Shown piece by piece: positions 3,835 through 21,900 of a DNA stretch of 28,245 bases; position 1 is the first letter of the stretch, and every line of letters begins with the position of its first letter. A program made the translations under genes and the position numbers. Below the pieces are notes generated by a model. That model was given only the letters and a program-made list of their open reading frames with translations, was not told where the DNA came from and searched no databases. The stretch lies in UHGV virus genome UHGV-0133447; one strand, 5' to 3'. This stretch comes from a virus.

Positions 3835-3857
3835 GGCCAGAACGTTCTTGTCTGGCC
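3835..3857 (+). terminator. hairpin with T-rich tail after the 3528-3812 ORF (weak intrinsic-terminator candidate)
   Basis: 7-bp stem ggccaga/tctggcc with 9-nt loop, followed by ctttctcaagttt. Confidence 0.3.
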
Positions 3858-3902
3858 CTTTCTCAAGTTTGCTCAGTCGAAATTCAATATTCTTTGCCTT
3901 GA

Positions 3903-4133
3903 TCATCGCGTAACCCTGCCGGTTGGTTGCGGGCAGTTAGCCTGCACTGATTTGTTGTGCGCCAGAATGTCGCGCTTCGTCTGCTTATCCAGCACATCGA
4001 TATCGTGGTCAGTAAGGTAGATGATCCGCACCCAGCTGCACGCGGTATCAACCACCACCGGGGCGGGTAAACTTTTCGCGCAGCTCGCGATCAACATCGT
4101 CATCGCCCATACGCTTAACGCTCTCTTCAACAT
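3903..4133 (-). CDS. putative outer-membrane spanin (Rz1-like lipoprotein), overlapping the i-spanin in another frame
   Basis: Internal ATG of the 3903-4292 ORF gives MLKRALSVWAMTMLIASC...: basic n-region, hydrophobic core, lipobox-like IASC. About 76 aa with several Pro and Cys in the mature part. Sits just downstream of the endolysin. Confidence 0.5.
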   Translation of the reverse strand: MLKRALSVWAMTMLIASCAKSLPAPVVVDTACSWVRIIYLTDHDIDVLDKQTKRDILAHNKSVQANCPQPTGRVTR

Positions 4134-4329
4134 CGCTGGCCCCTTTCGTGGCTTCTGCTTTACGTTCTGCCGCGGCGACGCTGGCGGCCGCCTTCTCTTC
4201 GGTGCGCTGCCGGCTGGCTTTCGCTTCTGCTTTACTGGTGCCTCGCGCATGGCCAATGCCGAACGCGCCAGCAATAGCGCCCAGAATGACAACCACCAGC
4301 CCCGCGATAGCTTCTATTCCCATGATCAT
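4048..4329 (-). CDS. putative inner-membrane spanin (Rz-like)
   Basis: 93 aa with N-terminal transmembrane segment (IAGLVVVILGAIAGAFGI) then a charged Ala/Glu/Lys-rich helical region. Start overlaps the endolysin stop (ATGA). The following lipoprotein ORF overlaps its 3' end. Confidence 0.45.
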   Translation of the reverse strand: MIMGIEAIAGLVVVILGAIAGAFGIGHARGTSKAEAKASRQRTEEKAAASVAAAERKAEATKGASDVEESVKRMGDDDVDRELREKFTRPGGG

Positions 4330-4955
4330 CCCACCAGTACCGATTTTGCTTTCAGGAATCGGGCGCGTCGGTCATCAATGCCGTTCTGCCCGCCGTTGAT
4401 AATCTGGGTCACGCGCACTAAATCTCCGTGGTATTTCAAACATCCGTTTGAGGTGTAAAACCAGGCTGCGCTGCGGGCCGCATTAATATATTTCTCCAAC
4501 AACTCAGGGTTGCTGACTAAATCCAGTTTCAGTGCATTACCGCACTTCATATAATTTTCGAGGAAGGTGATCCCGATAATTCCACGCCCGCGGTATTTCC
4601 AGCCATCGCCCGCAGCCTTATTGCCAAAACGATTGTTGTAGACGAGATTAGCGATCGCTCGTTGACGTTCGATCGGTAAAACCTTTTCGTAAGTTTTACG
4701 CCCCAGGGTGTTCGCCTGGTCCTGCGTGATGCGCTTTGCCTTCACAAAACCAGCCAGGCCGGCAACGCTATAGTTAAAACTTTCGACCATCTGGGTAAAT
4801 GACGTGCTTTCGTGTCCACACTGCGCTATGAACATCGCCTGATCGAGTGGAGCTGTAATGCCGAATTCTTTCATCGCAGCATCAATATGCGGAAACCAGC
4901 GCGCAGCTAACCCGGCGCTGATACCAGCCGCCCTTTGAAATTGTGATTGGTTCAT
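4326..4955 (-). CDS. endolysin, glycoside hydrolase family 19 (chitinase-like lysozyme)
   Basis: 209 aa with FIAQCGHESTSF-type motif and overall GH19 endolysin pattern (memory). Flanked by holin-like and spanin-like genes. Confidence 0.85.
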   Translation of the reverse strand: MNQSQFQRAAGISAGLAARWFPHIDAAMKEFGITAPLDQAMFIAQCGHESTSFTQMVESFNYSVAGLAGFVKAKRITQDQANTLGRKTYEKVLPIERQRAIANLVYNNRFGNKAAGDGWKYRGRGIIGITFLENYMKCGNALKLDLVSNPELLEKYINAARSAAWFYTSNGCLKYHGDLVRVTQIINGGQNGIDDRRARFLKAKSVLVG

Positions 4956-5854: not shown

Positions 5855-6265
5855 ATGGAAATTATTTCAGTAATCGGAGTGATACTGACACTGCTAGGGC
5901 TCTTTATTCCGTCACTAATCAGTAACCATTCGTCACGTAAGGCAGAGTTCAGGAAGCATTCCGCACCACTGCTGGGAAAGTTGCTAAGCGAAATTGAGGC
6001 TATTGAAGGAGGCTCTTATCCATTCAGGCTTATCAGCGATGCTGATTTCAACCAGTTGCTACCTTACGCCCCGAGGCGCAGGAAAAACGCTCTCCTTGAT
6101 GCTTACACCAGTTATCTCGACGCTCATACGATGGCCACCACGAAGCACTGGCACGATGAACATCCATCCGATGGAATGCTATTTTTCCCGACGGGTTTCT
6201 CAGTCACTAATTCAGATGAGGTACTGAAGAAAATGCAACCTCTGAAAAAAGAACTCAGCAGATAG
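5855..6265 (+). CDS. hypothetical membrane-anchored protein (136 aa), moron candidate
   Basis: N-terminal hydrophobic segment IISVIGVILTLLGLFIPSLI. AGGGAAA upstream of the ATG. Opposite strand to the late operon, in visibly AT-richer DNA bracketed by the 14-bp repeats. Confidence 0.5.
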   Translation: MEIISVIGVILTLLGLFIPSLISNHSSRKAEFRKHSAPLLGKLLSEIEAIEGGSYPFRLISDADFNQLLPYAPRRRKNALLDAYTSYLDAHTMATTKHWHDEHPSDGMLFFPTGFSVTNSDEVLKKMQPLKKELSR

Positions 6266-6896: not shown

Positions 6897-7322
6897 TCAC
6901 AGGTACTGGTCCAGAGGAAGTTGCAGAGCCTGGGCAATTTTCTTCAGCTGTTTCTCTTCTTCTTCCCCGATGCCGTCGTTATCAGCTACATCAAGACACA
7001 GGCAAAGAACATCGACAGCGTCATCCGTCCCGGCAACGTCAGCCAGTTCGCGCAACGCCTGAGCGTTGGCTGAACGTGGTGATGCTTCATAGCGAGCGCG
7101 AATATTCGAACTCATCTGGGCAATTTCACCAGCAAATGGCGCGAATGCCGGGAGGGCCGAAATAGTCTTCTCCAGCACTGCAATCTCTTTTGCATCGCAG
7201 GTACCATCGGCGTATGCAATCGAGTACGCTCCCCAGACCGTGGCTTCTACGGCATCGCGGTTTTCCATTTTTTTTACTTCAACAACGGCTTTACGGGCTT
7301 TCTTTTTAAAAATACCGAACAT
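6897..7322 (-). CDS. TerB-like domain protein (tellurite-resistance TerB fold), moron candidate
   Basis: Using the ATG for MFGIFKKK...: two acidic motifs (AYADGTCDAKEIAVLEK and VADNDGIGEEEEKQLKKIAQAL) matching the TerB pattern from memory. The track ORF extends to 7403 with an alternative upstream start. Confidence 0.5.
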   Translation of the reverse strand: MFGIFKKKARKAVVEVKKMENRDAVEATVWGAYSIAYADGTCDAKEIAVLEKTISALPAFAPFAGEIAQMSSNIRARYEASPRSANAQALRELADVAGTDDAVDVLCLCLDVADNDGIGEEEEKQLKKIAQALQLPLDQYL

Positions 7323-7341
7323 AATTACGTCTCTCTTTAGT

Positions 7342-7404
7342 GGTGAGCCAACGCTCAGGGATGGTAACCACAAGGCGACGTAATACCGTCCCTCTTGGCT
7401 CACC
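7342..7404 (-). promoter_or_regulatory. long composite hairpin in the leader of the TerB-like gene
   Basis: Outer 10-bp stem ggtgagccaa (7342-7351) / ttggctcacc (7395-7404). Inner 8-bp stem agggatgg (7357-7364) / ccgtccct (7386-7393) with one wobble. Sits between the HNH-AP2 stop and the TerB-like start. Confidence 0.35.
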
Positions 7405-7453: not shown

Positions 7454-7954
7454 TTAAATAGATGAAAAATCACCATGGTACTGCCTGGAAGCAGCTACAT
7501 ACGCCCTGTGCGCTTCTTCTTTAGTGTGGAAGCGACCAAGTCGAATTTTTTTCTTTGCAATACTTATTTGCGCAATCCATTTTTTTCTATTGCGGGGGGA
7601 ATCGTTGAAATAGACCCCTTTAAGTCCAGCTGCGTTATTGCTGTGTATCCGTCGATTGCGAGTGTTCTGGTTTTGTGTGCAGAGCCTGAGATTTGTAATA
7701 CGGTTATTCAACTTGTCGCCATCAATATGATCAACAACAAGGGTTGACGGAATTTCACCGTATTTCAAGACCCAAATTATTCGGTGCACACGTATATTCT
7801 TTCCATTGAAGAATACCCTTAAATACCCAGTATCAGTCTTGACGCCAAGAGTGTCGCCAGGACTTTTACTCCCAAAAGGTGACTTGCAATAAAGGATGCC
7901 CGTAGTTTCATCGTATGAAAAAAAGTTCCTAACCGTTTCAAGAGATAGATTCAT
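7454..7954 (-). CDS. HNH homing-type endonuclease with C-terminal AP2-like DNA-binding domain
   Basis: 166 aa. HNH core VVDHIDGDKLNNRITNLRLCTQNQN. C-terminal GVYF...KKWIAQISIAKKKIRLGRFHTKEEAHRAYVAASRQYHGDF resembles AP2 domains (memory). AGGAG RBS. Gene is visibly AT-richer than its flanks. Confidence 0.8.
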   Translation of the reverse strand: MNLSLETVRNFFSYDETTGILYCKSPFGSKSPGDTLGVKTDTGYLRVFFNGKNIRVHRIIWVLKYGEIPSTLVVDHIDGDKLNNRITNLRLCTQNQNTRNRRIHSNNAAGLKGVYFNDSPRNRKKWIAQISIAKKKIRLGRFHTKEEAHRAYVAASRQYHGDFSSI

Positions 7955-8008
7955 GCCTACTCCTGGTATGGGTCCTGTGCTTAAATAACGCCGAGCGTGG
8001 CGCAGATA

Positions 8009-8033
8009 CGAAAAAGGCCCGCGAATGCGAGCC
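8009..8033 (-). terminator. intrinsic terminator-like hairpin (minus strand) upstream of the HNH-AP2 gene
   Basis: Minus-strand reading ggctcgc-attc-gcgggcc (7-bp stem, one G-U pair) followed by TTTTTCG. Confidence 0.45.
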
Positions 8034-8246
8034 TGATGGATCCGCTTACTGATACGGAGCGACCAACCTAAGTTGTCGCAGATTCAAATTGTGGCCCTGC
8101 CTTTAAGTCACTTTGCGCGCAGCTGGGACATGTAGTTTTCGCATCGTGATCGGGATTCGCTTCAGACGCTGGCCCCGCAGCCATTTAAGTGCCGGTTACG
8201 TTTATCCGGCGGCTTTCGCCCGGTTAAGCCCTAAGGTAAGGGATTT

Positions 8247-8393
8247 GGTTGTGACACCAGGCCGTTACGCCTGCTTACTTCCTGCCGCTCTGTTTTGGTA
8301 TTGGCCGCCAGTAACTGCGACTCAGCCGATTTACAGGTCTTTGCGTCGGCCGGCGCTGCAGCCCACTTGAGCACATCACAACGGAAAGAGCGC
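8247..8393 (-). ncRNA. candidate structured tRNA-like element, copy A (degenerate)
   Basis: Minus-strand leader gcgctctttccgttgtgat resembles the leaders at 21901 and 22159. gttgtga can pair with tcacaac about 130 nt downstream to close the element. Contains gcgccggccgacg internal motif. Region 8036-8505 has no credible ORF. Confidence 0.3.
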
Positions 8394-8505
8394 TTAGTGC
8401 ATTTAAGCCAAACCCCATGTAGGAAGCACTCTTACCTGTTGTGCGCTCCGTTTCGTGGAGCAGACGCCGCCGGAATCGCACCGGCAGAATCATCACATTG
8501 GTATA

Positions 8506-8581
8506 TGGTGCTGGTTGACGGAATCGAACCGCCGACATCCTGCTTACAAGGCAGGCGCTCTACCAGCTGAGCTAAACCAGC
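8506..8581 (-). tRNA. tRNA-Thr (anticodon UGU), phage-encoded
   Basis: Minus-strand 76-nt cloverleaf GCTGGTT-TA-GCTC-AGCTGGTA-GAGC-G-CCTGC-CTTGTAA-GCAGG-ATGTC-GGCGG-TTCGATT-CCGTC-AACCAGC-A-CCA. Acceptor 7 bp, D-loop GG, anticodon loop with U33 and A37, canonical T-loop, encoded CCA. Confidence 0.8.
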
Positions 8582-9621
8582 AAATTACGCATTTCACTGA
8601 CCGTCTGTTCAAATCTCTCGGTTTCCAGTTCGACACCTAGTCCCCTTCGCCCGAGAAGAGCAGCCTGCTTGAGCGTTGAGCCTGATCCAAAAAAGAAATC
8701 AGCTACAACATCACCCGGGCGGCTACTCGCTGTGATTATCTGCTCCAGCATATCCGCAGGCTTTTCACATGGGTGTTTACCTGGATAAAACTGAACAGGC
8801 TTATGAGTCCAGACGTCGGTATATGGCACCGTGACCGATACGCTGAATGGTCGCCGTAAACGGTAATATTCCTGCTGGAGTTCAGAATATTTTCGGCTTA
8901 ACGATTGCCAGGTGCCGACAAGCTGGTGGTGAGGTTTTCCCAGTTCGTTGCGTGAGTGCTTATCCATGGCGATTGTTTGAAACAAAGCCTGCAACTTTAA
9001 ATAATCGGCTTCGTTCGGTAGCTGCCACTGACTAAGGCCAAACCAGTGGGAAACCATATTTTTCTTACCTGTGGCTTCTGCAATCTGAGCCGACGTCACG
9101 CCAAGAGATTCCCGTGCATCACGGAAGTAAGAAATTAAAGGCGTCATGACGTGTTGCTTTAACTCATTACACTTTGCGGCATATCCATCGTCTTTGGGCC
9201 TGTATGGCCCCTGATAATGGTCGGCAAAAATGATACGCTCAGTGGCCGGGAAATAAGCGCGTAAGCTCTCCTTATTGCAGCCGTTCCATCGCCCTGATGG
9301 CTTAGCCCAGATGATATGGTTGAGCAGGTTAAACCGCTCTCTCACCAACAGCTCAATATCCGCTGCCAGGCGGTGCCCACAGAACAGATACATGCTGCCG
9401 GCAGGTTTTAACACTCGCCAGAACTGTGCCAGACAGCTATCCAGCCAACGTAAATAGTCTTCGTCCCCCTTCCATTGGTTATCCCAGCCGTTTGGCTTCA
9501 CCTTAAAATAAGGCGGATCGGTAACAATAAGATCAATGGAGTTATCGGGTAGCGATGGGAGGTATTGCAGGCAATCAGCATTGATTAACTCAATACTGGA
9601 TATTTTTACAGTATTTTTCAT
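8572..9621 (-). CDS. orphan DNA methyltransferase, N6-adenine/N4-cytosine (beta) class
   Basis: 349 aa with TDPPYF catalytic motif near the N-terminus. No adjacent restriction endonuclease. The ORF's last codons overlap the 5' end of the tRNA. Confidence 0.85.
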   Translation of the reverse strand: MKNTVKISSIELINADCLQYLPSLPDNSIDLIVTDPPYFKVKPNGWDNQWKGDEDYLRWLDSCLAQFWRVLKPAGSMYLFCGHRLAADIELLVRERFNLLNHIIWAKPSGRWNGCNKESLRAYFPATERIIFADHYQGPYRPKDDGYAAKCNELKQHVMTPLISYFRDARESLGVTSAQIAEATGKKNMVSHWFGLSQWQLPNEADYLKLQALFQTIAMDKHSRNELGKPHHQLVGTWQSLSRKYSELQQEYYRLRRPFSVSVTVPYTDVWTHKPVQFYPGKHPCEKPADMLEQIITASSRPGDVVADFFFGSGSTLKQAALLGRRGLGVELETERFEQTVSEMRNLLV

Positions 9622-9770
9622 AGATCAGTAAGCGTAACTCTGATAGGCTCACTTTGCTTTTGCGCTAAAGCAGTGGGCCGTGGTTAGCTTGTGACCTGAA
9701 AGCATGAGCTGATGGCTGGCCGGGTGCTACAACACCCACCAGCCGCCCATTTTCACAGCAAAAGCCCCCA

Positions 9771-9992
9771 TTACTGGAGGCGCTTATAACATCCGAACTG
9801 ATAATCAGATAACCCCGCCATTACCAGCTGCGTAAGTATGAGCTGGCAGCGTTCGCGGCTCAGGTGAGTATTCTGAGCAATCTCCCCAGCCGTAGCCGGT
9901 TTGTCACTTAACTCATCAAAAACAGCCTTGGCTGTTTCCGTCATATCTTGCTGATTTAGCATGTCTTTTATCTCAAATAAGTGGTGTGACAT
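9771..9992 (-). CDS. small winged-helix-like DNA-binding protein (hypothetical; PapI/FaeA-like fold only suspected)
   Basis: 73 aa from the ATG (MSHHLFEIK...); the track's longer ORF starts at a TTG. Segment ATAGEIAQNTHLSRERCQLILTQLVMAGL has an HTH-like pattern. First ORF downstream of the late promoter/terminator. Confidence 0.35.
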   Translation of the reverse strand: MSHHLFEIKDMLNQQDMTETAKAVFDELSDKPATAGEIAQNTHLSRERCQLILTQLVMAGLSDYQFGCYKRLQ

Positions 9993-10063
9993 ACAGATAA
10001 CTCTGGTGACGGTATCCAGCAAGAACTAATTGAAAGAGAAGAAGATTTTATCGATTTTATCCC

Positions 10064-10089
10064 ATAAAAAAACCCGCTCGCTGGCGGGT
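10064..10089 (-). terminator. intrinsic terminator just downstream of the putative late promoter (tR'-like)
   Basis: Minus-strand reading acccgc-cagcga-gcgggt followed by seven T (complement of 10066-10072). Confidence 0.5.
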
Positions 10090-10127
10090 TAATCAACGTT
10101 GAACATACAAAGCCCATCGTTATAAAT

Positions 10128-10156
10128 AAAATTACACAAAAGCGGCAACTTTGCAA
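10128..10156 (-). promoter_or_regulatory. candidate late promoter (PR'-like) immediately downstream of Q
   Basis: Minus-strand TTGCAA (10151-10156), 17-nt spacer, TAATTT (10128-10133). About 40-60 nt upstream of the terminator at 10064-10089, analogous to the lambda PR'-tR' arrangement. Confidence 0.35.
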
Positions 10157-10172
10157 GTAACGTGTCGCTAAA

Positions 10173-11003
10173 TTATGCGATATTTATCAAATCAGGCACC
10201 TTTGTCACACGTTTAAGCTGTGAGTCGGTATAACTCTCTTCCTCAAAGCATCTTGTAACCAGACTTTCATAGAAAGGTTTCCAGCTATATCGCCAGGTAC
10301 GTTCTGGCAGACCAGGCAGCTCAGAGAGCATACCCCTGTATGCATTCGAAGACTTAGGACGACTATAACCGCGGCCTTCACAACGTTTACACACTTTGTA
10401 GACAGGCACTCCCTGCAGCTCTGACTCTTTACGGTCCAGGGTTTTTCCCGTACCGCCACACTGGCATCGCTTGCTGATTTTCCCGGTGCCGCCACATTTG
10501 AAGCAAAGAACATGGTCAACCTCTTCCACCTGACGTTTTACTTCAAAATCCGAAGGTGACTGCCTGAGGTCTTTTGCCCATTGCGGTAATCTCATTGTGT
10601 AGTGGCTTTTTTCCACCATTGAGGTTTTTTTTATGAAGCCTGAACCAGAACACTTCCTGCAATCTACGCTGTCAGCTGCAGACGAGGCATAGTCGTTATA
10701 AGCGAACCGAGCTATTATCAGCATACACAGCGGGAACTTCTTCCCTGCTGCTTTTCTTATCGATCGAGGCGCTTTTGATTTTGCATATTCAGCCAACCAA
10801 CTGACGGATGCCTTTCTGTCGTGTTCGCTGATTCCAGCTTTACCCAAAAACATTGACAGGCCTATTCCTGCCTCTGCCTGTGTCATCCCCAGAGCCGCCA
10901 TTACATCTGTCACAGTAAGTTGCTCGCTGGCGGTTGCAAGACCGCTATCGGAAATATGCATTCCTTTGGGCGCAAAAAATTTGGGAATTGATTCAATATT
11001 CAT
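10173..11003 (-). CDS. late-gene antitermination protein Q-like (Cys-rich, zinc-binding type)
   Basis: Repeated Cys pairs CRKCSGSG / CFKCGGTGK / CQCGGTGK / CKRCEGRG. Position directly upstream of promoter plus terminator and adjacent to DUF968 resembles Qin-type Q (memory). ATG at 11003 has a GGAG RBS; the track's GTG at 11021 is an alternative start. Confidence 0.65.
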   Translation of the reverse strand: MNIESIPKFFAPKGMHISDSGLATASEQLTVTDVMAALGMTQAEAGIGLSMFLGKAGISEHDRKASVSWLAEYAKSKAPRSIRKAAGKKFPLCMLIIARFAYNDYASSAADSVDCRKCSGSGFIKKTSMVEKSHYTMRLPQWAKDLRQSPSDFEVKRQVEEVDHVLCFKCGGTGKISKRCQCGGTGKTLDRKESELQGVPVYKVCKRCEGRGYSRPKSSNAYRGMLSELPGLPERTWRYSWKPFYESLVTRCFEEESYTDSQLKRVTKVPDLINIA

Positions 11004-11021
11004 GCTCAGTACTCCATACAC

Positions 11022-12077
11022 TCAAGCTTTTACAATGACGCCGATACCCATTACCCGATCCAGAAAACGAGCCCACAGCTCTAACTGAGTGCCATATTTC
11101 TTTTCGAACTCTGATGTATTGGCGTGTAATTCATCGTGATGCACTCTGCACAGTGGTATCACGAAGAGATCATGGGCCTTGGTGCCAGTTCCCCCCAGAC
11201 CATTCCCTATTATATGGTGTGGATCGTCTGAAGGTTGCCTACAGCATTCACATGGCTGAGTTTTAACCCAACGTGTGTAAACTTCGCAGGTCCAGCGCCG
11301 GCGCTTTGGGCGGCGCATAAATGATTCGGGGCTGTTCGGATCGACACTAAGCCTCAGAATGGGTTTACTTTCAATCTGAGGTTGCTCAATGAGTACACTG
11401 GCGTCCGCCAGGTCTATGCCCTCGACAAGATCCTGAAGGATTTCACCTGCAGCTAATGACGGGACAATATCGCTATCCTTATAAACGGACAGGAAAGGTT
11501 CCTCAGGCAGTCTTAAGGCCTGTTGCGCCATCGTCTCGGTTATTGCGTCAGCAATGCCGGATTTCACGGCCCACCAGCAGAGCTCCGCCATCGATAATTC
11601 GCGCTCCTTATTGTATCCAAGGCTGATCAACACCCTTTCAATCACCCACTGAACCAGATTCTGATAAGCCAGCTCTGACAACATTTCGGTGGTCTGCTCA
11701 CGTAATTCATTATCACAATGCCAGCAGACAACCATGGCGCCAGGCGGATGCCGCATAGTCACTAATTCATGGTGGTGATAGTGGGAATGCGGGTACTGGC
11801 ACTCTCTGACATGTCGTAGAAGCCAGGCCTCAAGAGCGTTAATTCCACCAGCTGCGTTAATAACCCTCTCATCCCTCATGAAAAAACGCAGAATGTCCAT
11901 TTCTGCAAGCGGCTGACGTGCATCGGCGATCCGCCCAGTGGGCAGTGTTTTCATCTTCTCTGGCTGGCGCTCTATCAGGACACGACCGCCGGTAAAGAGA
12001 GACATCAATTCGCGGCCTGGTTTAAAAAGAACAACGCCCAGGCGCGGAACAATTTCCGGAGTTAGCAATGCCCGCAC
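11022..12077 (-). CDS. DUF968-family phage protein (YdfU-like) with C-terminal HNH-like Cys/His motif
   Basis: 351 aa from a GTG start. C-terminal CECC...DPHHII...IPLCRVHHDELH motif. Length and position before Q resemble YdfU of lambdoid prophages (memory). Confidence 0.6.
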   Translation of the reverse strand: MRALLTPEIVPRLGVVLFKPGRELMSLFTGGRVLIERQPEKMKTLPTGRIADARQPLAEMDILRFFMRDERVINAAGGINALEAWLLRHVRECQYPHSHYHHHELVTMRHPPGAMVVCWHCDNELREQTTEMLSELAYQNLVQWVIERVLISLGYNKERELSMAELCWWAVKSGIADAITETMAQQALRLPEEPFLSVYKDSDIVPSLAAGEILQDLVEGIDLADASVLIEQPQIESKPILRLSVDPNSPESFMRRPKRRRWTCEVYTRWVKTQPCECCRQPSDDPHHIIGNGLGGTGTKAHDLFVIPLCRVHHDELHANTSEFEKKYGTQLELWARFLDRVMGIGVIVKA

Positions 12078-12085
12078 AATACCCC

Positions 12086-12610
12086 CTAAACAGTCAGATC
12101 TTTAAGCTTCTGCACGGCTTTTCCAACTTCAGCCATAGCATCTACGAACTCGTCAAACTTCCTGCTGGCCATTCCATATGCCTGGAGAATCTCCAACTTC
12201 AAGGGATCGAGCTGTTTCTTAATTTCTGCACGATCCCCGGCTTTTTTCTCCGCTTCCTCTGCCGCTTTGATCAAGGCGTCGGCCTGTTTACGTAATGCTT
12301 CCGGAGTTACTTCGAGCTGTTTATTCATTTTGCATTCCATCGTCGGCTGAGGAGGTCTCATTACAGGCGCCACAGATTTGTGACCATATTTAGGGTGGTG
12401 CAAGGTAGTAGACCTTCCATCATCTATCACGCAGAGCAGCCCGCTTTCCCGGATAATATCAATCAGAGTCTCTTTGTCTTTTCGATTGAGCCCGCTATAT
12501 GCCGCCACTTTGTGCGTCAGGTGGGTTAGCGTTGCGCCTTCTGGTTGCTTCTCTACAAAACGCTTTACCCTGGAGAGAACTGGTTGCAGGTGTGGAGGTG
12601 TCATTCTCAT
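12086..12610 (-). CDS. hypothetical protein with C-terminal coiled-coil
   Basis: ATG at 12608-12610 preceded by AAGGGG; the track start at 12616 is a GTG. No family recognised. Confidence 0.45.
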   Translation of the reverse strand: MRMTPPHLQPVLSRVKRFVEKQPEGATLTHLTHKVAAYSGLNRKDKETLIDIIRESGLLCVIDDGRSTTLHHPKYGHKSVAPVMRPPQPTMECKMNKQLEVTPEALRKQADALIKAAEEAEKKAGDRAEIKKQLDPLKLEILQAYGMASRKFDEFVDAMAEVGKAVQKLKDLTV

Positions 12611-12619
12611 GTTCACCCC

Positions 12620-13450
12620 TTACTGCGTGACAACGCCAATGAGCTTTAAAAGCTCAGGAAATTTCGATTCGAAGAAGTGCGGTTGCGTCTCACGTGGATT
12701 TGCCGGGCTGGTGATGTTTTTACCGTACAGACAACCTTTTGCCGTAACAGACCAGAATCTTTTCACGCCATTGATACCCGTTCGGCTGCGGCGCTCCTTC
12801 TGCTCGACTATGCCGTGACCAGCCATAAGGTGATAAGCCTGGTTCGCGGTCATTCTGATGTTGTTAGCTTTAAGCAAAGCGCTAAGAGACAGCGTTGGTC
12901 TGCTGGAACCATCCTGCGCGCCAGCTGGTGCATCAATGGCATATGAAGGCATTAAATCAGGCAGCCCTGCTACCTGCTGAAGCTTCTGATATGCCCCGAG
13001 CTTTGACGAATTAGAGAGATTGAGCATTTTGGATGCAGATTCCAGGAGGATTATGCCAGCCTGAATGCGATCGGTATTGACGGTTGCAGCCCCAGCAGTG
13101 TGGAGCGCGTCAAACGTTCTGATGACCTTCAGATTAAAAACAGCGCTGATCCACATCGCGTAGGCATACACCAACTCACGGCAAACATAGGTACCTTGCT
13201 CATTTCCGCCGCGGATGACACTTACAGGTTCTGAAATATCCGAGTTGCTATTTTGCAACTCGCCTATCAATTGCGCAGTTTGTTCGTTACGGAGCCAGAA
13301 TGCAGGCTTATGGCGGTCAAGGGAGCCGGAAGCACGATGGAGATCGTTTAGGCAATAACGACCAAGGACATCACGACGAACAGAAATACCATCAATAACA
13401 AAAAAAGTGTGATTATTGGATGCAGCAGCACCCATGACGTGGTTAGTCAT
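12620..13450 (-). CDS. KilA-N domain protein (antirepressor-like)
   Basis: N-terminal FFVIDGISVRRDVLGRYCLNDLHRASG...KPAFWLRNEQTAQLI matches the KilA-N pattern (memory). ATG at 13450 has a GGAG RBS; the track start 13462 lacks one. Confidence 0.7.
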   Translation of the reverse strand: MTNHVMGAAASNNHTFFVIDGISVRRDVLGRYCLNDLHRASGSLDRHKPAFWLRNEQTAQLIGELQNSNSDISEPVSVIRGGNEQGTYVCRELVYAYAMWISAVFNLKVIRTFDALHTAGAATVNTDRIQAGIILLESASKMLNLSNSSKLGAYQKLQQVAGLPDLMPSYAIDAPAGAQDGSSRPTLSLSALLKANNIRMTANQAYHLMAGHGIVEQKERRSRTGINGVKRFWSVTAKGCLYGKNITSPANPRETQPHFFESKFPELLKLIGVVTQ

Positions 13451-13538
13451 AGCTTTCTCCATACATTTTTATGTGACGAAGGGCCTGCACGCCCGTTTCG
13501 TTTGCACCCTTTGAGATTACTGGCAAGTTGCATAGACT

Positions 13539-13937
13539 TCAACCTACCACTGAACAAACATCCAGCGTTTTTTTATACGCCGATATGGTGATTTCTACCC
13601 GCCCGCCTTTAACATTCTCACCCCACTCTATAGCCATGCGCTTTACCTGGTTGTCGTCCTCCCAGATACCGGCATAAGTCAAAGCATCAAGAAGTGCCTT
13701 GTTGTAATTGTCCAGGTCACGCCGGCGATAGTCTGGCGGATAGAGAATAATTTCTACAGCTGCTGGCGCGGTAGATGGTTTTGGTATTGCACGCAGTTGC
13801 TCAATGATCGCTGAACGTACTGCATGTTTGAATTTACGGCCGGCTGCGCTGACAAGGTGTTTACCTTTTGCGGGCCCCTTATTTGGGGACCGCCAGTAGG
13901 TGTTCACGCTGGGTGGGAATGGAAGAATAAATTTCAT
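13539..13937 (-). CDS. rusA: Holliday-junction resolvase RusA
   Basis: 132 aa. N-terminal MKFILPFPPSVNTYW plus acidic catalytic region typical of RusA. Start overlaps the upstream stop (ATGA). Confidence 0.9.
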   Translation of the reverse strand: MKFILPFPPSVNTYWRSPNKGPAKGKHLVSAAGRKFKHAVRSAIIEQLRAIPKPSTAPAAVEIILYPPDYRRRDLDNYNKALLDALTYAGIWEDDNQVKRMAIEWGENVKGGRVEITISAYKKTLDVCSVVG

Positions 13938-14410
13938 TCTGCCTCCAGCACTATTTTCAACTCAAACGGAACATCTCCTCCGCAATAGCAGAGCGGGCCA
14001 AGGTCAGACATGAGGCTCCACAGGGTCATTGACGTATAGCCATTTTCGTCTGTTATCGGGGGCGAAAAGTCTCCGAAGATCGCCGGGTGCTGGATTCGAT
14101 TCTCTTCGTGCTGGCTTCTCAAGTAACTTAGAGCTTCGGCAGTAAGTTTCACTTTTACGATGCTGTTGAGATTGACCGATATTTCTCTGGCCAACAGCGA
14201 AGAGGTGATACTGATACCGCGAGAAACCCCGCGGGTAATCTTGATGGCCCCTTTTCTCTCCAGCGCCTTGAGGTGCGTTGCTGCTGCATTGGGGGACCGG
14301 CACCCCAGCATGCCGGTCAGTTCGTAAGTTGTAGGCGGAAAACCATGTTTACGCTGATATTCGATCAGGAGGTCAAGGACCTCCTGCTGCCTTAAGGTCA
14401 AGGAAGTCAT
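13934..14410 (-). CDS. LexA-type N-terminal DNA-binding domain protein lacking the S24 peptidase domain
   Basis: From ATG 14410: MTSLTLRQQEVLDLLIEYQRKHGFPPTTYELTGMLGCRSPNAAATHLKALERKGAI closely follows the LexA DNA-binding-domain pattern. The ~90-aa C-terminal part has no Ser/Lys peptidase motifs. Start overlaps the C5-MTase stop (ATGA). Confidence 0.6.
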   Translation of the reverse strand: MTSLTLRQQEVLDLLIEYQRKHGFPPTTYELTGMLGCRSPNAAATHLKALERKGAIKITRGVSRGISITSSLLAREISVNLNSIVKVKLTAEALSYLRSQHEENRIQHPAIFGDFSPPITDENGYTSMTLWSLMSDLGPLCYCGGDVPFELKIVLEAE

Positions 14411-16389
14411 GCTGCCTGCTCCTCTCTGTTCACGCACATTTCGGGTAAGTTGGCGCGTACCAGCGCTTCGGCGAACGGCGGCGGGACGGCATTGCCACAG
14501 CGCGCGACCTGCTTATCTTTCGCGTATTTCACGCCGCGGTAATCCTGGTCAATGATGTACCACTCCGGAAAGCCCTGCGCCCGATAGAGCTCGTGCGGCT
14601 GCAGCATGCGCATGCCGATATCAACGATGCGGTAAGTCACTCCGCCGATTTCCACCAGCCCGGTGCATTCCTCTCCGCAGTATTCCTGCAGGAACGACAG
14701 CACCTGCTGCGCTCGCTCTTCGTCATAGTCCTCGACCGCCAGAGTCGTTTTAACCTCCCCTACATGCTGGCCACCGGCAGTGATAGTCGGCATCGGCTCG
14801 TCAGTTCGCTGGCCATCGCGGCAGGTTCCGCGCAGCTTAACCAGATGAGAAGCGACTAATGCATGGTGATCGACAGTCGTTACTGAATGCGCTGGCTCAT
14901 CCAGCCCCACGCCAGCGCCCTGATAATTCCCTCCGTAGTGTTTTGCCAGGAACGCACCAACTACAGCATGTTTCCCGCCACCAGCCACAACGGTGCCCAG
15001 CGGCTTATCCAGTCCTGGCACGCGAGGTGCCTGTCCTGGCCGTTCCCCGTATCCCATTTGAATGAGCGTCGGCACAACCAGCTGCGATTTACCTCCGCCG
15101 CCCGCGGTGATTGTTGCGCTAGGCTCATCCGCCCGGTGTCCGATGCTGGCGCCGAACTGCCGGGCGATAACCGGAGCGACGACACAGGCGCGCGATTCTT
15201 TCAGGATGGTGTGAGCGGGTTTATCGAGCGGGCGTGGTTTAGCCTGGTACTCGCTGCCGCCATTGCCAGCCAGGAACGGCGCCAGCTCTGCTTCAACAAT
15301 ACCCAGAGCGTGACCATTCCCGCCCGGGCGTTTTGCGGTACCGGCCGTCACCGTCGGCAACGGATCGGTGACTTCCTGCCCGGTAGCTCCAGTTCGGAAT
15401 TTTGTCAGATGAGGTACCGCAATTGCGTAGCCGTGGGTTTTCGTAATCGTCTGTAGCGGATCGTCCAGCGCCTGTCCCCGGAAACAGTCGTATTTGCCGC
15501 GTGTCGTTGTGTGATTGCACTTCACGATGAACGGCGAAGCGCTTTCGATAACAAAGCGCTGAATGCCGCGGGCAATCCGTTTTAGCGTATTCTCTGCCAG
15601 TGACTTTTTGCGACCGAAGATGCTCGGCGCGGGGATTGACCAGTCTATGCATTCCGCAGCTGTACGCCACGGCTCAAGCTGGCCCGCCAGCACGGCGGCA
15701 GACTTCGGATCCCCGTGCGTGGCTTCCGGCCAGACTATCAGTTTCCCGTCCCGGCGCATCACCATGAAGAACCGCTTACGGATGGTCGGCGCGCCATAAT
15801 CGCAGGCGCGCAGCTCGCGAAAATCGACGACATAACCCAGCCCGGCAATTAAGCGCTTGGCCTGCTCGCTATCCGGTGAAAACTCCAGAAACTCGCAACA
15901 CTCCACCAGTGCAGGATGATCTGCTGGAATACCGGTGGTAAGCATCCCGACAAATGCATTGAAAGTTTCACCGATGCGTGCCGGATCCGGTCGCATTTCT
16001 GCCGCGAGTAACGGACCCCACGTCTTAAACTCTTCGACGTTTTCCAGCATCATGACTCGCGGGCCAACATCCAGCGCCCAACGAATGACGATCCATGCCA
16101 GCCCTCGAATAGCTTTCTCTACTGGTTTAGCACCTTTCGCTTTAGAAAAGTGACGACAGTCAGGCGAGAACCATGCCAGGCCGACAGGCTTGCTACTGGT
16201 AGCGGCTAATGGGGATACATCAAACACACTTTCGCAATAGTGAAGCGTGTCGGGATGGTTAGTGCGGTGCATAGCAACGGCGTTAACATCGTGGTTAATA
16301 GCGATATCAACACTGCGCCCTATTGCCAGTTCAATACCTGTACTGGCTCCACCGCCGCCAGCGAAATTATCGACAATAATCTCACGCAT
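14407..16389 (-). CDS. DNA (cytosine-5)-methyltransferase with long repeat-containing variable region
   Basis: 660 aa. DNFAGGGG (motif I), SPDCRHFS (catalytic Cys), MMLENVEEF (ENV), C-terminal QGFP and GNAV motifs. The intervening ~250 aa carries about six related modules of the form P-x-x-T-I/V-T-A-G-G. GAGGGGG RBS. Confidence 0.8.
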   Translation of the reverse strand: MREIIVDNFAGGGGASTGIELAIGRSVDIAINHDVNAVAMHRTNHPDTLHYCESVFDVSPLAATSSKPVGLAWFSPDCRHFSKAKGAKPVEKAIRGLAWIVIRWALDVGPRVMMLENVEEFKTWGPLLAAEMRPDPARIGETFNAFVGMLTTGIPADHPALVECCEFLEFSPDSEQAKRLIAGLGYVVDFRELRACDYGAPTIRKRFFMVMRRDGKLIVWPEATHGDPKSAAVLAGQLEPWRTAAECIDWSIPAPSIFGRKKSLAENTLKRIARGIQRFVIESASPFIVKCNHTTTRGKYDCFRGQALDDPLQTITKTHGYAIAVPHLTKFRTGATGQEVTDPLPTVTAGTAKRPGGNGHALGIVEAELAPFLAGNGGSEYQAKPRPLDKPAHTILKESRACVVAPVIARQFGASIGHRADEPSATITAGGGGKSQLVVPTLIQMGYGERPGQAPRVPGLDKPLGTVVAGGGKHAVVGAFLAKHYGGNYQGAGVGLDEPAHSVTTVDHHALVASHLVKLRGTCRDGQRTDEPMPTITAGGQHVGEVKTTLAVEDYDEERAQQVLSFLQEYCGEECTGLVEIGGVTYRIVDIGMRMLQPHELYRAQGFPEWYIIDQDYRGVKYAKDKQVARCGNAVPPPFAEALVRANLPEMCVNREEQAA

Positions 16390-17335
16390 GAGCGGTCCCC
16401 CTCATGCTGCCGACCAGCCCACCAGCAACGGTGATGATTTCGCTGGTGGGCACGCGCTCCAGCCACAACTGGTTAATGTGGGCCTTCAGCTTGTTCTGCT
16501 GGGAGAACTCCAGATCCTCTGCGCCTTGTACCTGTCCAAAGACGAGTCCAACTTCCAGTGGCCAGATCCGGGATTCAGGCTCAGCCAATGATGCAACAGC
16601 ATCGGGGATGATCACTTCAGGAGACTGAACTGGCGAAACTGGTGACAGGAATTTTCCTGCAGCAAACTCAGCCAGCGCCATACTTGCGCGCCCTTTTGCT
16701 TCCAGCTCAACGCGATCGATATAGCTAAAATGTTCACCGCGCCAGGTCTTATCAAATACCGCAATGGCCCCGGCAAAGAATGCGCTGGTGGGCTTCTGCT
16801 TTTCGTCGGCCGGCACAAACCACGTTGGGAGATCGAATCCAATACGACCACGAATAAACATGATGTGATCGGCATATTCCGGCCACCATGTTTCACTTGT
16901 TGCTGACTTCACGAGGTAAATGTAACGACCACCCTTTTCACGCTGCTCGGCGGTATAGTTCATAATATGAGTCATGCCAGTGATGGCTTGTTTTTCATGG
17001 TACTGCGAACGGCTATACGGCGGATTAGCAAAGGCCGCTCCTCCGAGTTCTACCAAACGACCAGACCAGTCCTGCGTCAGCGCATTATCTTCAGCGGTAT
17101 ACCATGCCGGACATTTTGTATTGCTGTCGTCTGCAAACAGGTCCAGTACCAGCGGGCCAAACATAGCGTTAACGCCCCAGAACAGCAGATCAGGGGTACG
17201 CCATTGATCCCCGACTTCTTTTAAATAATGCGCACTACGCTGGCGCTGTTCCTCAAGTGCCAGGCAATAAGGGCTGACGGTTTTTGTTAAAGTTTGCTCT
17301 TCTGCGGTCATAGCTTCTTGTACTTCCTGACTCAT
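16382..17335 (-). CDS. phage Dam-like N6-adenine DNA methyltransferase with C-terminal extension
   Basis: 317 aa. WRTPD...FANPPYS motif characteristic of the phage N6-adenine methyltransferase family (memory). AGGGGA RBS. Confidence 0.8.
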   Translation of the reverse strand: MSQEVQEAMTAEEQTLTKTVSPYCLALEEQRQRSAHYLKEVGDQWRTPDLLFWGVNAMFGPLVLDLFADDSNTKCPAWYTAEDNALTQDWSGRLVELGGAAFANPPYSRSQYHEKQAITGMTHIMNYTAEQREKGGRYIYLVKSATSETWWPEYADHIMFIRGRIGFDLPTWFVPADEKQKPTSAFFAGAIAVFDKTWRGEHFSYIDRVELEAKGRASMALAEFAAGKFLSPVSPVQSPEVIIPDAVASLAEPESRIWPLEVGLVFGQVQGAEDLEFSQQNKLKAHINQLWLERVPTSEIITVAGGLVGSMRGTAHA

Positions 17336-17513
17336 AGTTTTCCCCTGCGCTGATCAGCATCAACAAGTGCTCTCAGTAACCAGTAACGGCGATCAAAGCT
17401 GAAAAGGTCATTTCTGAGGAGTGCATATTTTCTGCGAAAAATAACGTCGTGCTGCCACCAGTAACGCCAGTGATGCAAACGCATAAGGCGCCGGAGACTT
17501 ATCAAAATCTTCT

Positions 17514-17972
17514 TCAATCGGAGCACAAGTCACCTCCGCAGTAATTTCCGGCCAGATAGCATGACCCGGCGGAATCATTCATGTTTCTGGCGTTTCGAAC
17601 AGAAGCATTCTTAAGACGCAGGTATCGCTCTCTTGCTTTAGCCGTACAGTTGCTGTCACAAAGTTGCTGCCATACCGTCGCCGCACGGCGGTAATAGCGT
17701 TTCTCTTCCAGCTTTTTGGCTGTCGCTTCAAGGGCGAGAATCTCCCCCGAAAGCCCACCTGGCAGGTACTCTTCAATATCAATGGATCCCGCTACGAAGT
17801 AGATAAACCCACCAGTAACTTCAACGCTGGCAAGTTCCCCGTCGTAGTAAAGGCGATGAACAGCGCTCTTCACTGTTACCGGTTTGGTTTCAGGAAATGC
17901 CGCAGTGATATCGCGCAGCATTTTGCCTGGATTCTTCTCAATAAATTCAAAGATCGACTTGGCTATGTTCAT
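17514..17972 (-). CDS. hypothetical protein with PerC-like C-terminal motif
   Basis: KRYYRRAATVWQQL resembles the RRAA-x-RW signature of PerC-family activators (memory, uncertain). Start overlaps the replication-protein stop (ATGA). Confidence 0.4.
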   Translation of the reverse strand: MNIAKSIFEFIEKNPGKMLRDITAAFPETKPVTVKSAVHRLYYDGELASVEVTGGFIYFVAGSIDIEEYLPGGLSGEILALEATAKKLEEKRYYRRAATVWQQLCDSNCTAKARERYLRLKNASVRNARNMNDSAGSCYLAGNYCGGDLCSD

Positions 17973-18880
17973 CCCCGGAACCCCCGTGGAATCGTGGTTT
18001 GTACTGGACTAATTGAATTAACATCCCGCGGTCTGGTTTTGTCCCACGACTCCCTTGGCGGGCGGCCTTTAGCATCCCAGCGGATGGCGCTTTGCAGATA
18101 TCCCTCGAATTTTTTAGGGCCGAAAAGTGTCTCGGGTCGCATGTACTGGTATTGCTCGTCGTTGCCATGCCAGTGCTCATGCTTGACGTCGATTACCAGA
18201 TTCAAGTCGCTAACGGTATGACCTTCGCGGAGGCGGGCGCGAATGTTCTCCAGTGAGGTCTTAGATTTCTGGTAACGGGAACCGCTGACCAGATTCAGGT
18301 GTGCCAGAACTTCGATCGCGTTATCGGTAATAACAACTTCAGGATCCGGCTTATCGTCGGGTTCCGCAGGAGCCCGACAAGAAGGTTTTTTAGATGACGG
18401 ATCTAATGACGGATCTAATGACGGATCGCCTTCAACCATTGAGGGGTCCTCCCGCAATATTTGAGGGGGTACAGACCCATTATTTGAGGCATCAGAATTT
18501 GACCCCTCAAATTTTGAACCCTCAAATTCTGAGGCATCAAATTTTGATTGTTCACGTGGCGTTGCGTAGAAGATTTTTGCTTCAGCTGCTGCACGTTCAA
18601 GCATGTCCACATTGAGTTTATAAACGTTCGAATTATTCTTTCCACCCACGCGCCGTTCCTGCTTCTTCAGCCAGCCTTTAGCCTGAAGCTTTTTGATAGC
18701 GCTGCGGACAGTATTCTCGCTCTTGGCGCCGATCTGTCGCTGAATAGTGGTTACCGCTGGCCATGACACACCTTCGTCATTACTGAAATCTGCCAGGCGA
18801 GCCATGACCGCTATTTCTGAGATTATCAGCCCTTTGAAAGCGCATGCTTCCCATACGAGGCCGTGTAATTTACTGCTCAT
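17969..18880 (-). CDS. replication initiator / replisome organiser (lambda O-like) containing the origin iterons
   Basis: N-terminal winged-HTH-like domain, low-complexity linker (DPSLDPSLDPS), conserved-looking C-terminal domain. The linker-coding DNA carries tandem and inverted short repeats. GAGGG RBS. Confidence 0.65.
   Translation of the reverse strand: MSSKLHGLVWEACAFKGLIISEIAVMARLADFSNDEGVSWPAVTTIQRQIGAKSENTVRSAIKKLQAKGWLKKQERRVGGKNNSNVYKLNVDMLERAAAEAKIFYATPREQSKFDASEFEGSKFEGSNSDASNNGSVPPQILREDPSMVEGDPSLDPSLDPSSKKPSCRAPAEPDDKPDPEVVITDNAIEVLAHLNLVSGSRYQKSKTSLENIRARLREGHTVSDLNLVIDVKHEHWHGNDEQYQYMRPETLFGPKKFEGYLQSAIRWDAKGRPPRESWDKTRPRDVNSISPVQTTIPRGFRG
18393..18540. repeat. iteron cluster (candidate origin of replication) inside the replication gene
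   Basis: Tandem 12-mers atgacggatcta (18393-18430, about 2.5 copies). Multiple ATTTGAGGG-type repeats in both orientations, e.g. tttgaggggg 18460-18469, ccctcaaatt 18503-18512 and 18519-18528, tgaggcatca twice. Confidence 0.5.
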
Positions 18881-20105: not shown

Positions 20106-20780
20106 ATGAAAACAATCCAGGAAATCAGGCGGTTAAACGCCAGAAAATTGCGTGATGGTGTTGGCGGTAATATTTACTTCGCCAATATGATTGATCGCGA
20201 GCCTACTCAAACCAGCCGGTTCATGGGAGATGGCGCCACTAAAAACATCGGCGATGCAATGGCAAGGCACATTGAAAAGTGTTTTGACTTACCTACTGGG
20301 TGGTTAGATCAGGAACATCAAACCACTAATGTTGCTAAAACGCCCGATGTCTCTGATACAAATAGAAATATCACCATGGTTCCGGTTATATCCTGGGTAC
20401 AAGCAGGAGCATGGACCGAAGTTGGCTATGCTGAGGTTGATTTGAATAGCACTGAAAACTATCCATGCCCTGTGCCTTGTGGGCCGATGACTTATATTCT
20501 TCGTGTTATTGGCGACTCAATGATCGACGAATATAGGCCCGGTGATATGATTTTTGTTGATCCCGAAGTTCCAGCAGTGCATGGAGATGATGTGATCGCC
20601 TTAATGCACGCTTCTGGTGAGACTACATTTAAACGGTTGATTGAAGATGCAGGACAACGCTATCTAAAAGCACTTAACTCAAATTGGCCAGAACCTTACA
20701 TCAAAATCAATGGTAATTGCTCTATCATTGGCACCGTAATTTTTTCCGGTAAACCAAGACGATACCGAACGAAAACATAA
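20106..20780 (+). CDS. cI: CI-like phage repressor (HTH plus S24 LexA-type peptidase domain)
   Basis: 224 aa. C-terminal VIGDSMIDEYRPGDMIFVD...FKRL carries the Ser/Lys S24 signature. N-terminal HTH region. Divergent from cro. Confidence 0.9.
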   Translation: MKTIQEIRRLNARKLRDGVGGNIYFANMIDREPTQTSRFMGDGATKNIGDAMARHIEKCFDLPTGWLDQEHQTTNVAKTPDVSDTNRNITMVPVISWVQAGAWTEVGYAEVDLNSTENYPCPVPCGPMTYILRVIGDSMIDEYRPGDMIFVDPEVPAVHGDDVIALMHASGETTFKRLIEDAGQRYLKALNSNWPEPYIKINGNCSIIGTVIFSGKPRRYRTKT

Positions 20781-20953: not shown

Positions 20954-21187
20954 ATGGCAAGCAAAGGCATTGAAAACCTTATCAAGGACGCATTGGCAAA
21001 CGGCTGTCATGTAGTCCGTAAAGCGCATCGCTTCGAGGTAAGCAAGAAAGGCCAAAAATCAATCACTCTTATTATTTGTGAAGATGGCACAGCTTACCGG
21101 GGAGATATTGACCTAACGATCGCCATAGCCATTCGCACTCAAAAAGAAATGCGCAGAATCCTCGGCCTGCCAGCCAAGGCAAGTTAA
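20954..21187 (+). CDS. hypothetical early protein (77 aa)
   Basis: First ORF after the PL-like promoter; AGGA about 8 nt upstream. No family recognised. Confidence 0.45.
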   Translation: MASKGIENLIKDALANGCHVVRKAHRFEVSKKGQKSITLIICEDGTAYRGDIDLTIAIAIRTQKEMRRILGLPAKAS

Positions 21188-21900
21188 TTACCACAGGTGT
21201 CTTCGGGAGGGGTTGCGGAGCTGGATTGACCACCAGCAACAGAAACTCACCCGACATACAGCAGCCGTTTAGCCCACGGCGTCGGGGGTCCAGTAGACCT
21301 GGATTAATACTGTAGGGGTTGTGCCGGTTGGTCGCCGGCGCCCCGCCCGAAGATTCCTGATCGAACATGGCGAAAGCCGACAGCGTTGAAGGCGATTTTC
21401 TCGGTTTGCGCGCTAAACAATAGCGGGGGTGAAATCGGGGCGGAGAAGCAGAATCCGCGATGTCGGGACTTGATACTTCCGGCCAGACCAACAAGCCGAA
21501 TGATCGCGTAACGGTCCTTTGCATCTGCCCCGGCGAGGTGGCGCCGCCGGACCGGGGCAGATGAATCGTACACAACATGAAAGCGCATTCCATCTTCATC
21601 CGTCGTGGGGACTGGTTTGTAACTGAAGGAGTGCGCTTCCAGTTGTGAACGGCAATATTCACGACCGTTGTATGGCACATGCAGCGTTAGCAGCCCGGAT
21701 GGTTCCCTTGAAGTTCCATGCGCTATCCGGACAACTGGAATGTGCAAGCCAAGTGTTTCAGGCACGACGTGCGCCCCACCAGCGCGGCGAAAAGGTGTGA
21801 CCCCCGGGAAGAGTCCGGGACACAACAGGAAAGAGTACTGAAGATGCCAGGAAACGCCCTACCGCCAGGCAGATAGACGGGTTATCCCGCAAGGGGTGGC

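Follow-up and report, generated by a model that had tools for sequence, protein, structure and literature searches.

Three orphan DNA methyltransferases in a lambda-like Klebsiella prophage, one of them a C5-cytosine enzyme with a tandem array of target-recognition-like modules

UHGV virus genome UHGV-0133447, a stretch of 28,245 nucleotides (28 kb) referred to here as the window, carries three genes for predicted DNA methyltransferases, all on the minus strand (Table 1). Family scans place the window in a lambda-like Klebsiella prophage of classical lambdoid layout, and Klebsiella phage Kp4866-6 matches region 8000-18000 at 97% identity over 95% of that region. A preliminary description of this DNA listed the genes as an N6/N4 beta-class enzyme, a C5-cytosine enzyme and a Dam-like N6-adenine enzyme. 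The three open reading frames (ORFs) lie where it placed them, and the classes agree with matches to PF01555, PF00145 and PF05869/TIGR01712, respectively. It named disrupted catalytic motifs as grounds for doubt; read on the translations, the motifs of all three are intact, with motif IV of the C5 enzyme in the form P-D-C. The main interest of the locus, absent from that description, is the modular architecture of the C5 enzyme, which is 660 amino acids (aa) long.

The minus-strand early-right operon holds, in order, cro-like, cII-like, O-like replication protein, activator, Dam, C5 methyltransferase, LexA-domain protein, RusA, KilA-N, DUF968 and Q genes. After Q come the late genes: the beta-class methyltransferase, tRNA-Thr, an HNH gene, a TerB-like gene, holin, endolysin, HNH, and the small and large terminase subunits. 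As the preliminary description held, the methyltransferases have no visible restriction partner: scans of ~40 window ORFs with Pfam, PHROGs, NCBIfam or PADLOC, which rely on known domains and would miss a novel domainless nuclease, hit no family of restriction endonucleases. Nuclease-type domains in the window are limited to a terminase-associated HNH (2484-2825), an HNH_3+AP2 gene (7454-7954, homing-endonuclease-like), DUF968 (11022-12077) and RusA, all of them ordinary components of lambdoid phages.

Table 1. Positions of the methyltransferase genes and associated features in the window
Feature	Position	Strand	Evidence
Beta-class N6-adenine DNA methyltransferase, putative M.EcoGII family, 349 aa	8572-9621	-	PF01555, E 2.2e-40, aa 29-340
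pR'/tR'-like region: promoter-like TTGCAA...TAATTT and intrinsic-terminator hairpin AACCCGCCAGCGAGCGGGTTTTTTT	10071-10172	-	Terminator scan, sequence reading
Protein with a LexA-type DNA-binding domain alone	13934-14410	-	PF01726, E 2.6e-20; likely start ATG 14410-14408
C5-cytosine DNA methyltransferase, 660 aa	14407-16389	-	PF00145, E 7.8e-19, two stretches at the protein ends
Seven tandem modules of the C5 enzyme resembling target-recognition domains, aa 308-565, 32-48 aa each	14695-15468	-	Motif scan, shuffle scoring, MAFFT, hidden Markov model
Phage Dam-type N6-adenine methyltransferase, 317 aa	16382-17335	-	PF05869, E 1.1e-42; TIGR01712; phrog_111 full length
S24 repressor	20106-20780	+	Family scans

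A C5-cytosine methyltransferase with a module array

The C5 enzyme is much longer than the solved bacterial C5 methyltransferases returned by a fold search (324-348 aa), and PDB sequences, like Pfam, match it at its two ends alone. Its catalytic core is split between aa 1-285 and aa 560-655, and the variable region that separates the two parts is very long. The core carries the motifs FAGGGG (I, aa 9-14), P-D-C (IV, 76-78), ENV (VI, 116-118), RKR (VIII, 204-206), QGFP (IX, 605-608) and GNAV (X, 632-635). Motifs I, VI, VIII, IX and X stand in canonical order at positions invariant in 94 family members, and the whole family shares an invariant motif IV Cys, ENV and R-x-R. In an AlphaFold model built on the 94-sequence alignment, the core has a predicted local distance difference test score (pLDDT) >90, and Foldseek matches it to DNMT1, MET1, 3g7u, M.HhaI and M.HaeIII; as modeled, the core has a DNA methyltransferase fold. 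AlphaFold with an alignment of seven close relatives gave a pLDDT of 27.

Between motifs VIII and IX, a stretch of ~300 residues, sits an array of seven tandem modules. A motif scan with shuffle scoring found the core [LVTA]-[DT]-x-P-x-x-[TS]-[IV] in seven copies, at residues 308, 340, 388, 420, 460, 496 and 529. Aligned with MAFFT, the units share a pattern of this core, often followed by A-G-G, then a short hydrophobic segment and a glycine-rich one, with the consensus L-D-E-P-x-x-T-[IV]-T-A-G-G-x-x-h-A-h-V-x-x-h-L-x-x-x-x-G-x-x-x-G. All seven score 24-56 bits with module hidden Markov models (HMMs). Motif and HMM methods were required to see the array: BLASTP self-comparison of the protein showed no repeats, and no Pfam family matched the module region at E up to 10. 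At the DNA level, repeats inside the gene are limited to short chance matches, which points to old duplications. In C5 methyltransferases the target-recognition domain (TRD) lies between motifs VIII and IX, and a T-[LIV] dipeptide is its conserved element. From position and motif, we infer that the modules are TRDs and that, singly or in pairs, each would steer the core to a different target.

The enzyme belongs to what seems to be a very large, phage-borne family undescribed in the searchable literature, in which we found no account of a proteobacterial multi-module C5 family. Of 8,141 relatives found among 1.84 billion representative proteins, 2,520 had E <1e-30; listed lengths ranged from 403 to 1,113 aa, and the family comprises at least 2,520 clusters at 50% identity. 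Relatives of equal 660-aa length form clusters of 55 and 1,123 member sequences. A module HMM trained on the family detected 1,066 units in 151 family representatives and one in shuffled copies (877 versus one with the first HMM, built from the window only). Family proteins have 1-12 units, most often 6-8, and gain ~36 aa in length per unit.

Close relatives differ by whole modules. Among Klebsiella proteins >85% identical to the window enzyme, exactly one module is inserted, deleted or replaced, giving lengths of 653, 660, 695 and 703 aa. Most are 695 aa long, with one extra module, of two different sequence types, at a clean in-frame junction of the window protein; a 653-aa relative lacks exactly module 5. 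Three modules are missing from a variant at 89% identity. Across the family, ~1,080 modules were sorted into 12 classes as Louvain communities, single-linkage clustering having merged nearly all of them. Each class has a strongly conserved motif of its own (e.g. PTLvQTGYGERxGQaPR, GGxHxaEVrAFLxKYYG and LvGvGGRagQsxPR), kept between proteins that are ~50% identical. As a rule, arrays end in A-C-E, and their internal part is combinatorial: the 153 family proteins show 148 different arrays, in which the frequent pair G-D may stand before or after the frequent pair B-H. The window array reads B-H-A-G-D-A-C, with the usual terminal E module replaced by a helix that AlphaFold predicts confidently. 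The variation is cassette-like, with whole-module changes between proteins >85% identical and a shuffled order across the family.

The C5 gene itself is a compositional outlier (GC 0.58 and third-position GC, GC3, 0.61, versus 0.51 for the window) and is joined to both neighbors by overlapping start and stop codons. Full-length copies are present in 15 of 5,426 E. coli genomes, there too beside a phage N6-adenine methyltransferase, and the gene is abundant in Klebsiella and Raoultella. The GC content, the codon overlaps and the rarity in E. coli fit a gene that was inserted or had a separate origin. Fragmentary or fused derivatives exist as well, among them short E. coli remnants and phrog_29443, in which the N-terminal 155 aa of the C5 enzyme seem fused to the C-terminal part of the LexA-domain protein.

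The closest architectural parallel is found in Bacillus. The phage enzymes M.SPRI, M.Phi3TI, M.Rho11sI and M.H2I have ~2-3 active TRDs. Like the window enzyme, they are orphan and encoded by temperate phages, and they place several short tandem units between motifs VIII and IX of one C5 core; each unit has a T-[IVL] core, and related phages differ by gain, loss and exchange of units. They differ in host, the window family being found in Proteobacteria, in motif IV (P-C rather than P-D-C) and in number, with seven units in the window enzyme and 1-12 in its family. Arraying multiple TRDs in one polypeptide shields Bacillus temperate phages from many restriction-modification systems (PMC12707154). 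Phage P1 Dmt likewise combines adenine and cytosine methyltransferases under phage repressor control, but it pairs an N-terminal C5 domain of canonical type (TPCQAFS) with a C-terminal Dam domain of another class, and it lacks a module array. Dmt was rejected as a homolog, as BLASTP returned generic motif similarity alone.

Relatives of the C5 enzyme are encoded at no fewer than 594 loci in IMG/VR. Among 70 of these loci, 24 have a PF05869 Dam as the upstream neighbor, and at up to ~13 more this neighbor bears some other methyltransferase-type Pfam domain, the neighbor family counts overlapping in part. Downstream lie ordinary phage genes (LexA-domain, DinI, antirepressor, RusA, DUF968, integrase and RecA), and no restriction enzyme family occurs among the immediate neighbors at the 70 viral loci. 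Orphan methyltransferases cluster around this family repeatedly in phages, and Dam and C5 are commonly paired as a two-gene cassette. In Pectobacterium phage ZF40 and Pseudomonas phage F116, a homologous C5 enzyme (717 and 687 aa, 8-9 modules each) stands amid other orphan methyltransferases, making up clusters of three; F116 also has a LexA-like gene nearby. The flanking methyltransferases of both phages are not homologous to those of the window: ZF40 gp20, gp22 and gp27 and F116 genes 9 and 11 were rejected on comparison as homologs of the Dam-like, LexA-like and beta-class proteins. Upstream in F116 are RdgC and the LexA-like gene, and the P1 dmt operon includes an RdgC-family gene and an NTP pyrophosphohydrolase, which suggests a recurrent functional neighborhood.

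The beta-class and Dam-like enzymes

The beta-class enzyme has DPPY at aa 35-38 (nt 9508-9519) and then F-x-G-x-G (FFGSG) at aa 310-314 (nt 8680-8694), the order of the beta class, with a central TRD of ~165 aa in between. Its nearest solved relatives are beta-class methyltransferases. Compared with the methyltransferase of phage 1720a-02, 269 of 348 residues are identical (77%) and 89% positive with zero gaps, TRD included, and Murray et al. (2018; PMC5778455) list the 1720a-02 enzyme among proteins very similar to M.EcoGII. Through this intermediate sequence, the window enzyme is assigned by similarity to the M.EcoGII family. M.EcoGII is a 349-aa beta-class enzyme from an E. coli O104:H4 prophage that methylates adenine in every context (86% of deoxyadenosine in vivo), blocks many restriction enzymes and also methylates adenosine in RNA; it is unexpressed in the lysogen and harmful to cells on expression (PMC5778455). 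Homologous prophage genes in E. coli ST131 are transcriptionally silent. Genes of the M.EcoGII type have a copy in 2,027 of 5,426 complete E. coli genomes (37%). The window enzyme resembles M.EcoGII and M.EcoGI, both of them non-specific enzymes from E. coli O104:H4 prophages, in its length of 349 aa, in the order DPPY-TRD-FxGxG and in its lambdoid prophage site downstream of Q; phage 1720a-02 has the order Q, methyltransferase, stx2. It differs in residing in a Klebsiella phage rather than E. coli and in ~23% of residues (relative to the 1720a-02 enzyme), some of them in the TRD. Its non-specificity is presumed by analogy with M.EcoGII.

The pR'/tR'-like region follows immediately on the stop codon of Q, a gene identified by PF03589. 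Its promoter-like TTGCAA...TAATTT was recognized by eye, and the scanner did not call it; its hairpin (10090-10071) is a strong one. A 64-aa winged-helix ORF and a second, weaker hairpin separate it from the beta-class gene. This repeats the lambda pR'/tR' arrangement and so places the gene in a Q-dependent late transcript, where by analogy it should need Q antitermination. Gene order, Q and the hairpin thus bear out the preliminary assignment of one late and two early-right methyltransferases. The 64-aa ORF (9771-9965, minus strand) has weak winged-helix matches (DprA_WH, TrmB, MarR-like; phrog_331), and phage 1720a-02 has a small ORF at the equivalent position; the product may serve as a controller protein or as a partner subunit. 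On the other side, a tRNA-Thr gene (anticodon TGT; 8506-8581, minus strand) in the late operon overlaps the final 10 nt of the methyltransferase ORF. Between the methyltransferase and the lysis genes lie the HNH_3+AP2 gene (minus strand) and the TerB-like gene (6897-7403, minus strand). Both look like lineage-specific insertions, because the holin gene directly follows the methyltransferase in several E. coli phages.

The Dam-like enzyme scores 146 bits against PF05869 (cut-off 28.1) and 187 bits against TIGR01712 phage_N6A_met (cut-off 97). Its catalytic domain spans aa 36-216, with NPPY at aa 104-107 (nt 17015-17026), and aa 21-220 are 68% identical to enzymes of Stx2c phages. By these matches, it is an ordinary member of its family, which we take to be GATC-specific, as are the Dam enzymes of phages T1 and VT2. 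A C-terminal extension of ~100 aa (aa 217-317; 16382-16690, minus strand) has no Pfam match and is covered by 12 of 467 matching phage records, e.g. Salmonella phage 118970_sal3. Other phages have fusions of the Dam domain with a PAPS-reductase domain (phrog_33262). M.EcoGIX was rejected as a relative of the gene, being plasmid-borne.

The stop codon of the Dam gene overlaps the C5 start by 8 nt. The LexA-domain gene overlaps both the C5 gene and rusA with ATGA junctions, read in the sequence, of the kind seen in translational coupling. Its product has no S24 protease domain and may control the methyltransferases or act as an SOS mimic. In phage 1720a-02, a Dam-type gene is followed directly by a gene for a 108-aa LexA-domain protein and then by RusA; that 'LexA' product is 48% identical to the window protein. 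The LexA-domain gene is a conserved downstream partner of Dam in E. coli Stx phages. The window Dam thus resembles the Stx-phage and T1-type enzymes in its NPPY motif, in passing both cut-offs and in its early-right site before a LexA-like gene, as in 1720a-02 and Stx2c phages, but it differs in the C-terminal extension and in the C5 gene that separates it from the LexA-like gene. Judged by sequence, the window is a Stx-phage backbone with a C5 gene placed between Dam and the LexA-like gene. The rarity of the trio that the preliminary description implied did not hold up. Dam plus an M.EcoGII-like gene is standard in Stx and other E. coli lambdoid phages, and ZF40 and F116 also have three methyltransferases; such a trio is ordinary in a temperate phage, and two of the three belong to well-studied prophage families.

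Proposed function and its alternatives

We lean, by a little, toward reading the three genes as a self-methylation kit that comes without a restriction enzyme, includes a multispecific C5 enzyme and protects progeny DNA. As the first gene of the Q-dependent late transcript, the beta-class enzyme would be made in lytic growth alone and would probably methylate adenines with little or no sequence preference, like M.EcoGII. In the early-right operon, the Dam-type enzyme would be translationally coupled to the C5 enzyme, whose single core would serve seven target-recognition-like modules and so be multispecific, as are the SPR, phi3T, rho11s and H2 enzymes. The three would mark progeny DNA with N6-methyladenine and 5-methylcytosine (5mC) at many sites before packaging. 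Phage marked in this way would enter new hosts with diverse restriction systems, and repression in lysogens would protect the host from the toxic effect of heavy methylation. The proposal builds on the gene identities, intact motifs, operon positions, modular repeat with whole-module variation and lack of restriction genes; from these we infer enzymatic activity, specificities, expression timing and a protective effect.

For the C5 enzyme on its own, multispecific self-protection against restriction is about an even call. We are somewhat more hesitant about a bolder form, in which the specificity of the single core is set by combining up to 12 exchangeable cassettes from about a dozen conserved classes, and in-frame recombination reshuffles lineage-specific sets of protected sites. 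This would make these the most highly multispecific DNA methyltransferases known. If several specificities are encoded in the array, a single prophage gene could hide many restriction sites at once and switch the set by gain or loss of a ~35-aa cassette. This would help to explain the spread of temperate phages among Klebsiella strains with differing restriction systems, would bear on host-range prediction for phage therapy, and would make the cassettes a natural parts list for engineering methyltransferase specificity. C5 activity could easily be missed in published methylomes, as 5mC is poorly seen by single-molecule real-time (SMRT) sequencing and the genes are likely silent in lysogens. 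The beta-class and Dam-like enzymes, of lesser importance, extend known E. coli prophage families to Klebsiella.

Several results weigh against multispecific self-protection. Modules 1-6, which share one core, have pLDDT 30-50 in the same AlphaFold model, leaving independent TRD folding unsupported. The module profile matched no PDB sequence at E up to 10. On M.SPRI, M.Phi3TI, M.Rho11sI and M.H2I, the module HMM gave no significant match (best 2.4 bits); the weak matches fall at T-[IVL] motifs (SPTITT, EPAFTVNTIDRHGV), so that the likeness of the window array to Bacillus TRDs appears architectural, with module homology unsupported. The terminal modules A-C-E are near-constant across the family and possibly structural rather than specificity cassettes. 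All this would suit the main rival, which we regard as unlikely if credible: the array would be one repeat-built DNA-binding domain giving relaxed, short-motif or processive methylation with a single specificity, and repeat number would tune affinity. That non-specific enzymes do occur in prophages is clear from the co-resident M.EcoGII family. A single fold would usually have a fixed unit order, however, and here the order is shuffled (G-D before or after B-H), nearly every array is distinct, and class-specific motifs are strongly kept between proteins at or below ~50% identity. Phage ZF40 grown without the host PcaI methylase is fully restricted by the CCNGG-specific PcaI system (Birkholz et al., PMC8989522). 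Its C5 homolog therefore leaves some cytosine motifs open, which argues against fully non-specific methylation and also means that protection is partial.

The other two enzymes bring difficulties of their own. An identity of 77% is no proof that the beta-class enzyme keeps the non-specificity of its family. Klebsiella has its own Dam, and a GATC-specific phage Dam would protect little in a Dam-bearing host. The broad anti-restriction role suggested in the preliminary description therefore gains from the late enzyme, through its M.EcoGII family, and from the C5 enzyme, through its variable TRD-like array, and gains nothing obvious from the Dam-like enzyme; the other role that it suggested, epigenetic control of host or phage genes, is neither strengthened nor weakened by the results. 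Restriction sites in the window are uninformative either way: avoidance is limited to the common depletion of CTAG and TATA, and GATC does not stand out. Dam redundancy is better accommodated if the methyltransferases mainly regulate the phage, acting on replication or packaging timing, the lysis-lysogeny choice or host gene expression, an alternative that we find a little less probable than a single repeat-built domain. Dam and C5 do stand among early-right regulators, coupled to a protein with a LexA-type domain, and the Dam and LexA-like pair is conserved in Stx phages. P1 needs Dam methylation for cleavage at pac, and many orphan methyltransferases may regulate viral cycles (PMC12707154). 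Regulation leaves unexplained the hypervariable module arrays and a beta-class family whose type member is non-specific, and no regulatory target sites were identified. That at least one enzyme acts on RNA, e.g. rRNA, rather than DNA is improbable. The precedent is a Stx-prophage 'DNA adenine methyltransferase' of the MT-A70 type that forms, with an adjacent winged-helix protein, a holoenzyme methylating 16S rRNA (PMC10810198), and it warns against reading substrate from annotation. M.EcoGII also accepts RNA, and the 64-aa winged-helix ORF lies just upstream of the beta-class gene. Set against this, MT-A70 is distinct from the families of all three window genes, for which reason the rRNA enzyme was rejected as a relative; M.EcoGII methylates >85% of DNA adenines in vivo, and the C5 core has the motifs and, as modeled, the fold of a DNA methyltransferase. 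Least probable of all, in our judgment, is that the genes are inactive relics in a decaying prophage. Motif IV of the C5 enzyme reads S-P-D-C-R-H-F-S (P-D-C at nt 16156-16164, minus strand), with Asp preceding the catalytic Cys where P-C is canonical; the terminal E module present in most of the family is missing, and broken or fused derivatives are known. Yet P-D-C-x-H-F-S occurs in ~105 of 150 family representatives by simple pattern search and is thus the family-wide form, and with this non-canonical motif IV, activity is assumed. The three ORFs are also full-length with intact catalytic motifs, the region closely matches a deposited Klebsiella phage genome, and 660-aa relatives are abundant.

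Other genes in the window

The early-left operon (24638-28154, plus strand) encodes a ParB-like protein (PF17762), a DndB/DGQHR-domain protein (PF14072, TIGR03187), a 193-aa protein without a family and a protein with a PF04447 dATP/dGTP pyrophosphohydrolase domain. The ParB-like, DndB/DGQHR and PF04447 families are tied elsewhere to DNA modification or nucleotide-pool editing, and these genes may be a further DNA-modification or anti-defense module of the same phage. Several ORFs run against the direction of the surrounding operons (3528-4458 and 5855-6265, plus strand; 21072-21680, minus strand). They have no family match or match a PHROG of unknown function alone, and are possible morons or defense genes. 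GC content is raised to ~0.55-0.56 in region 21000-22500.

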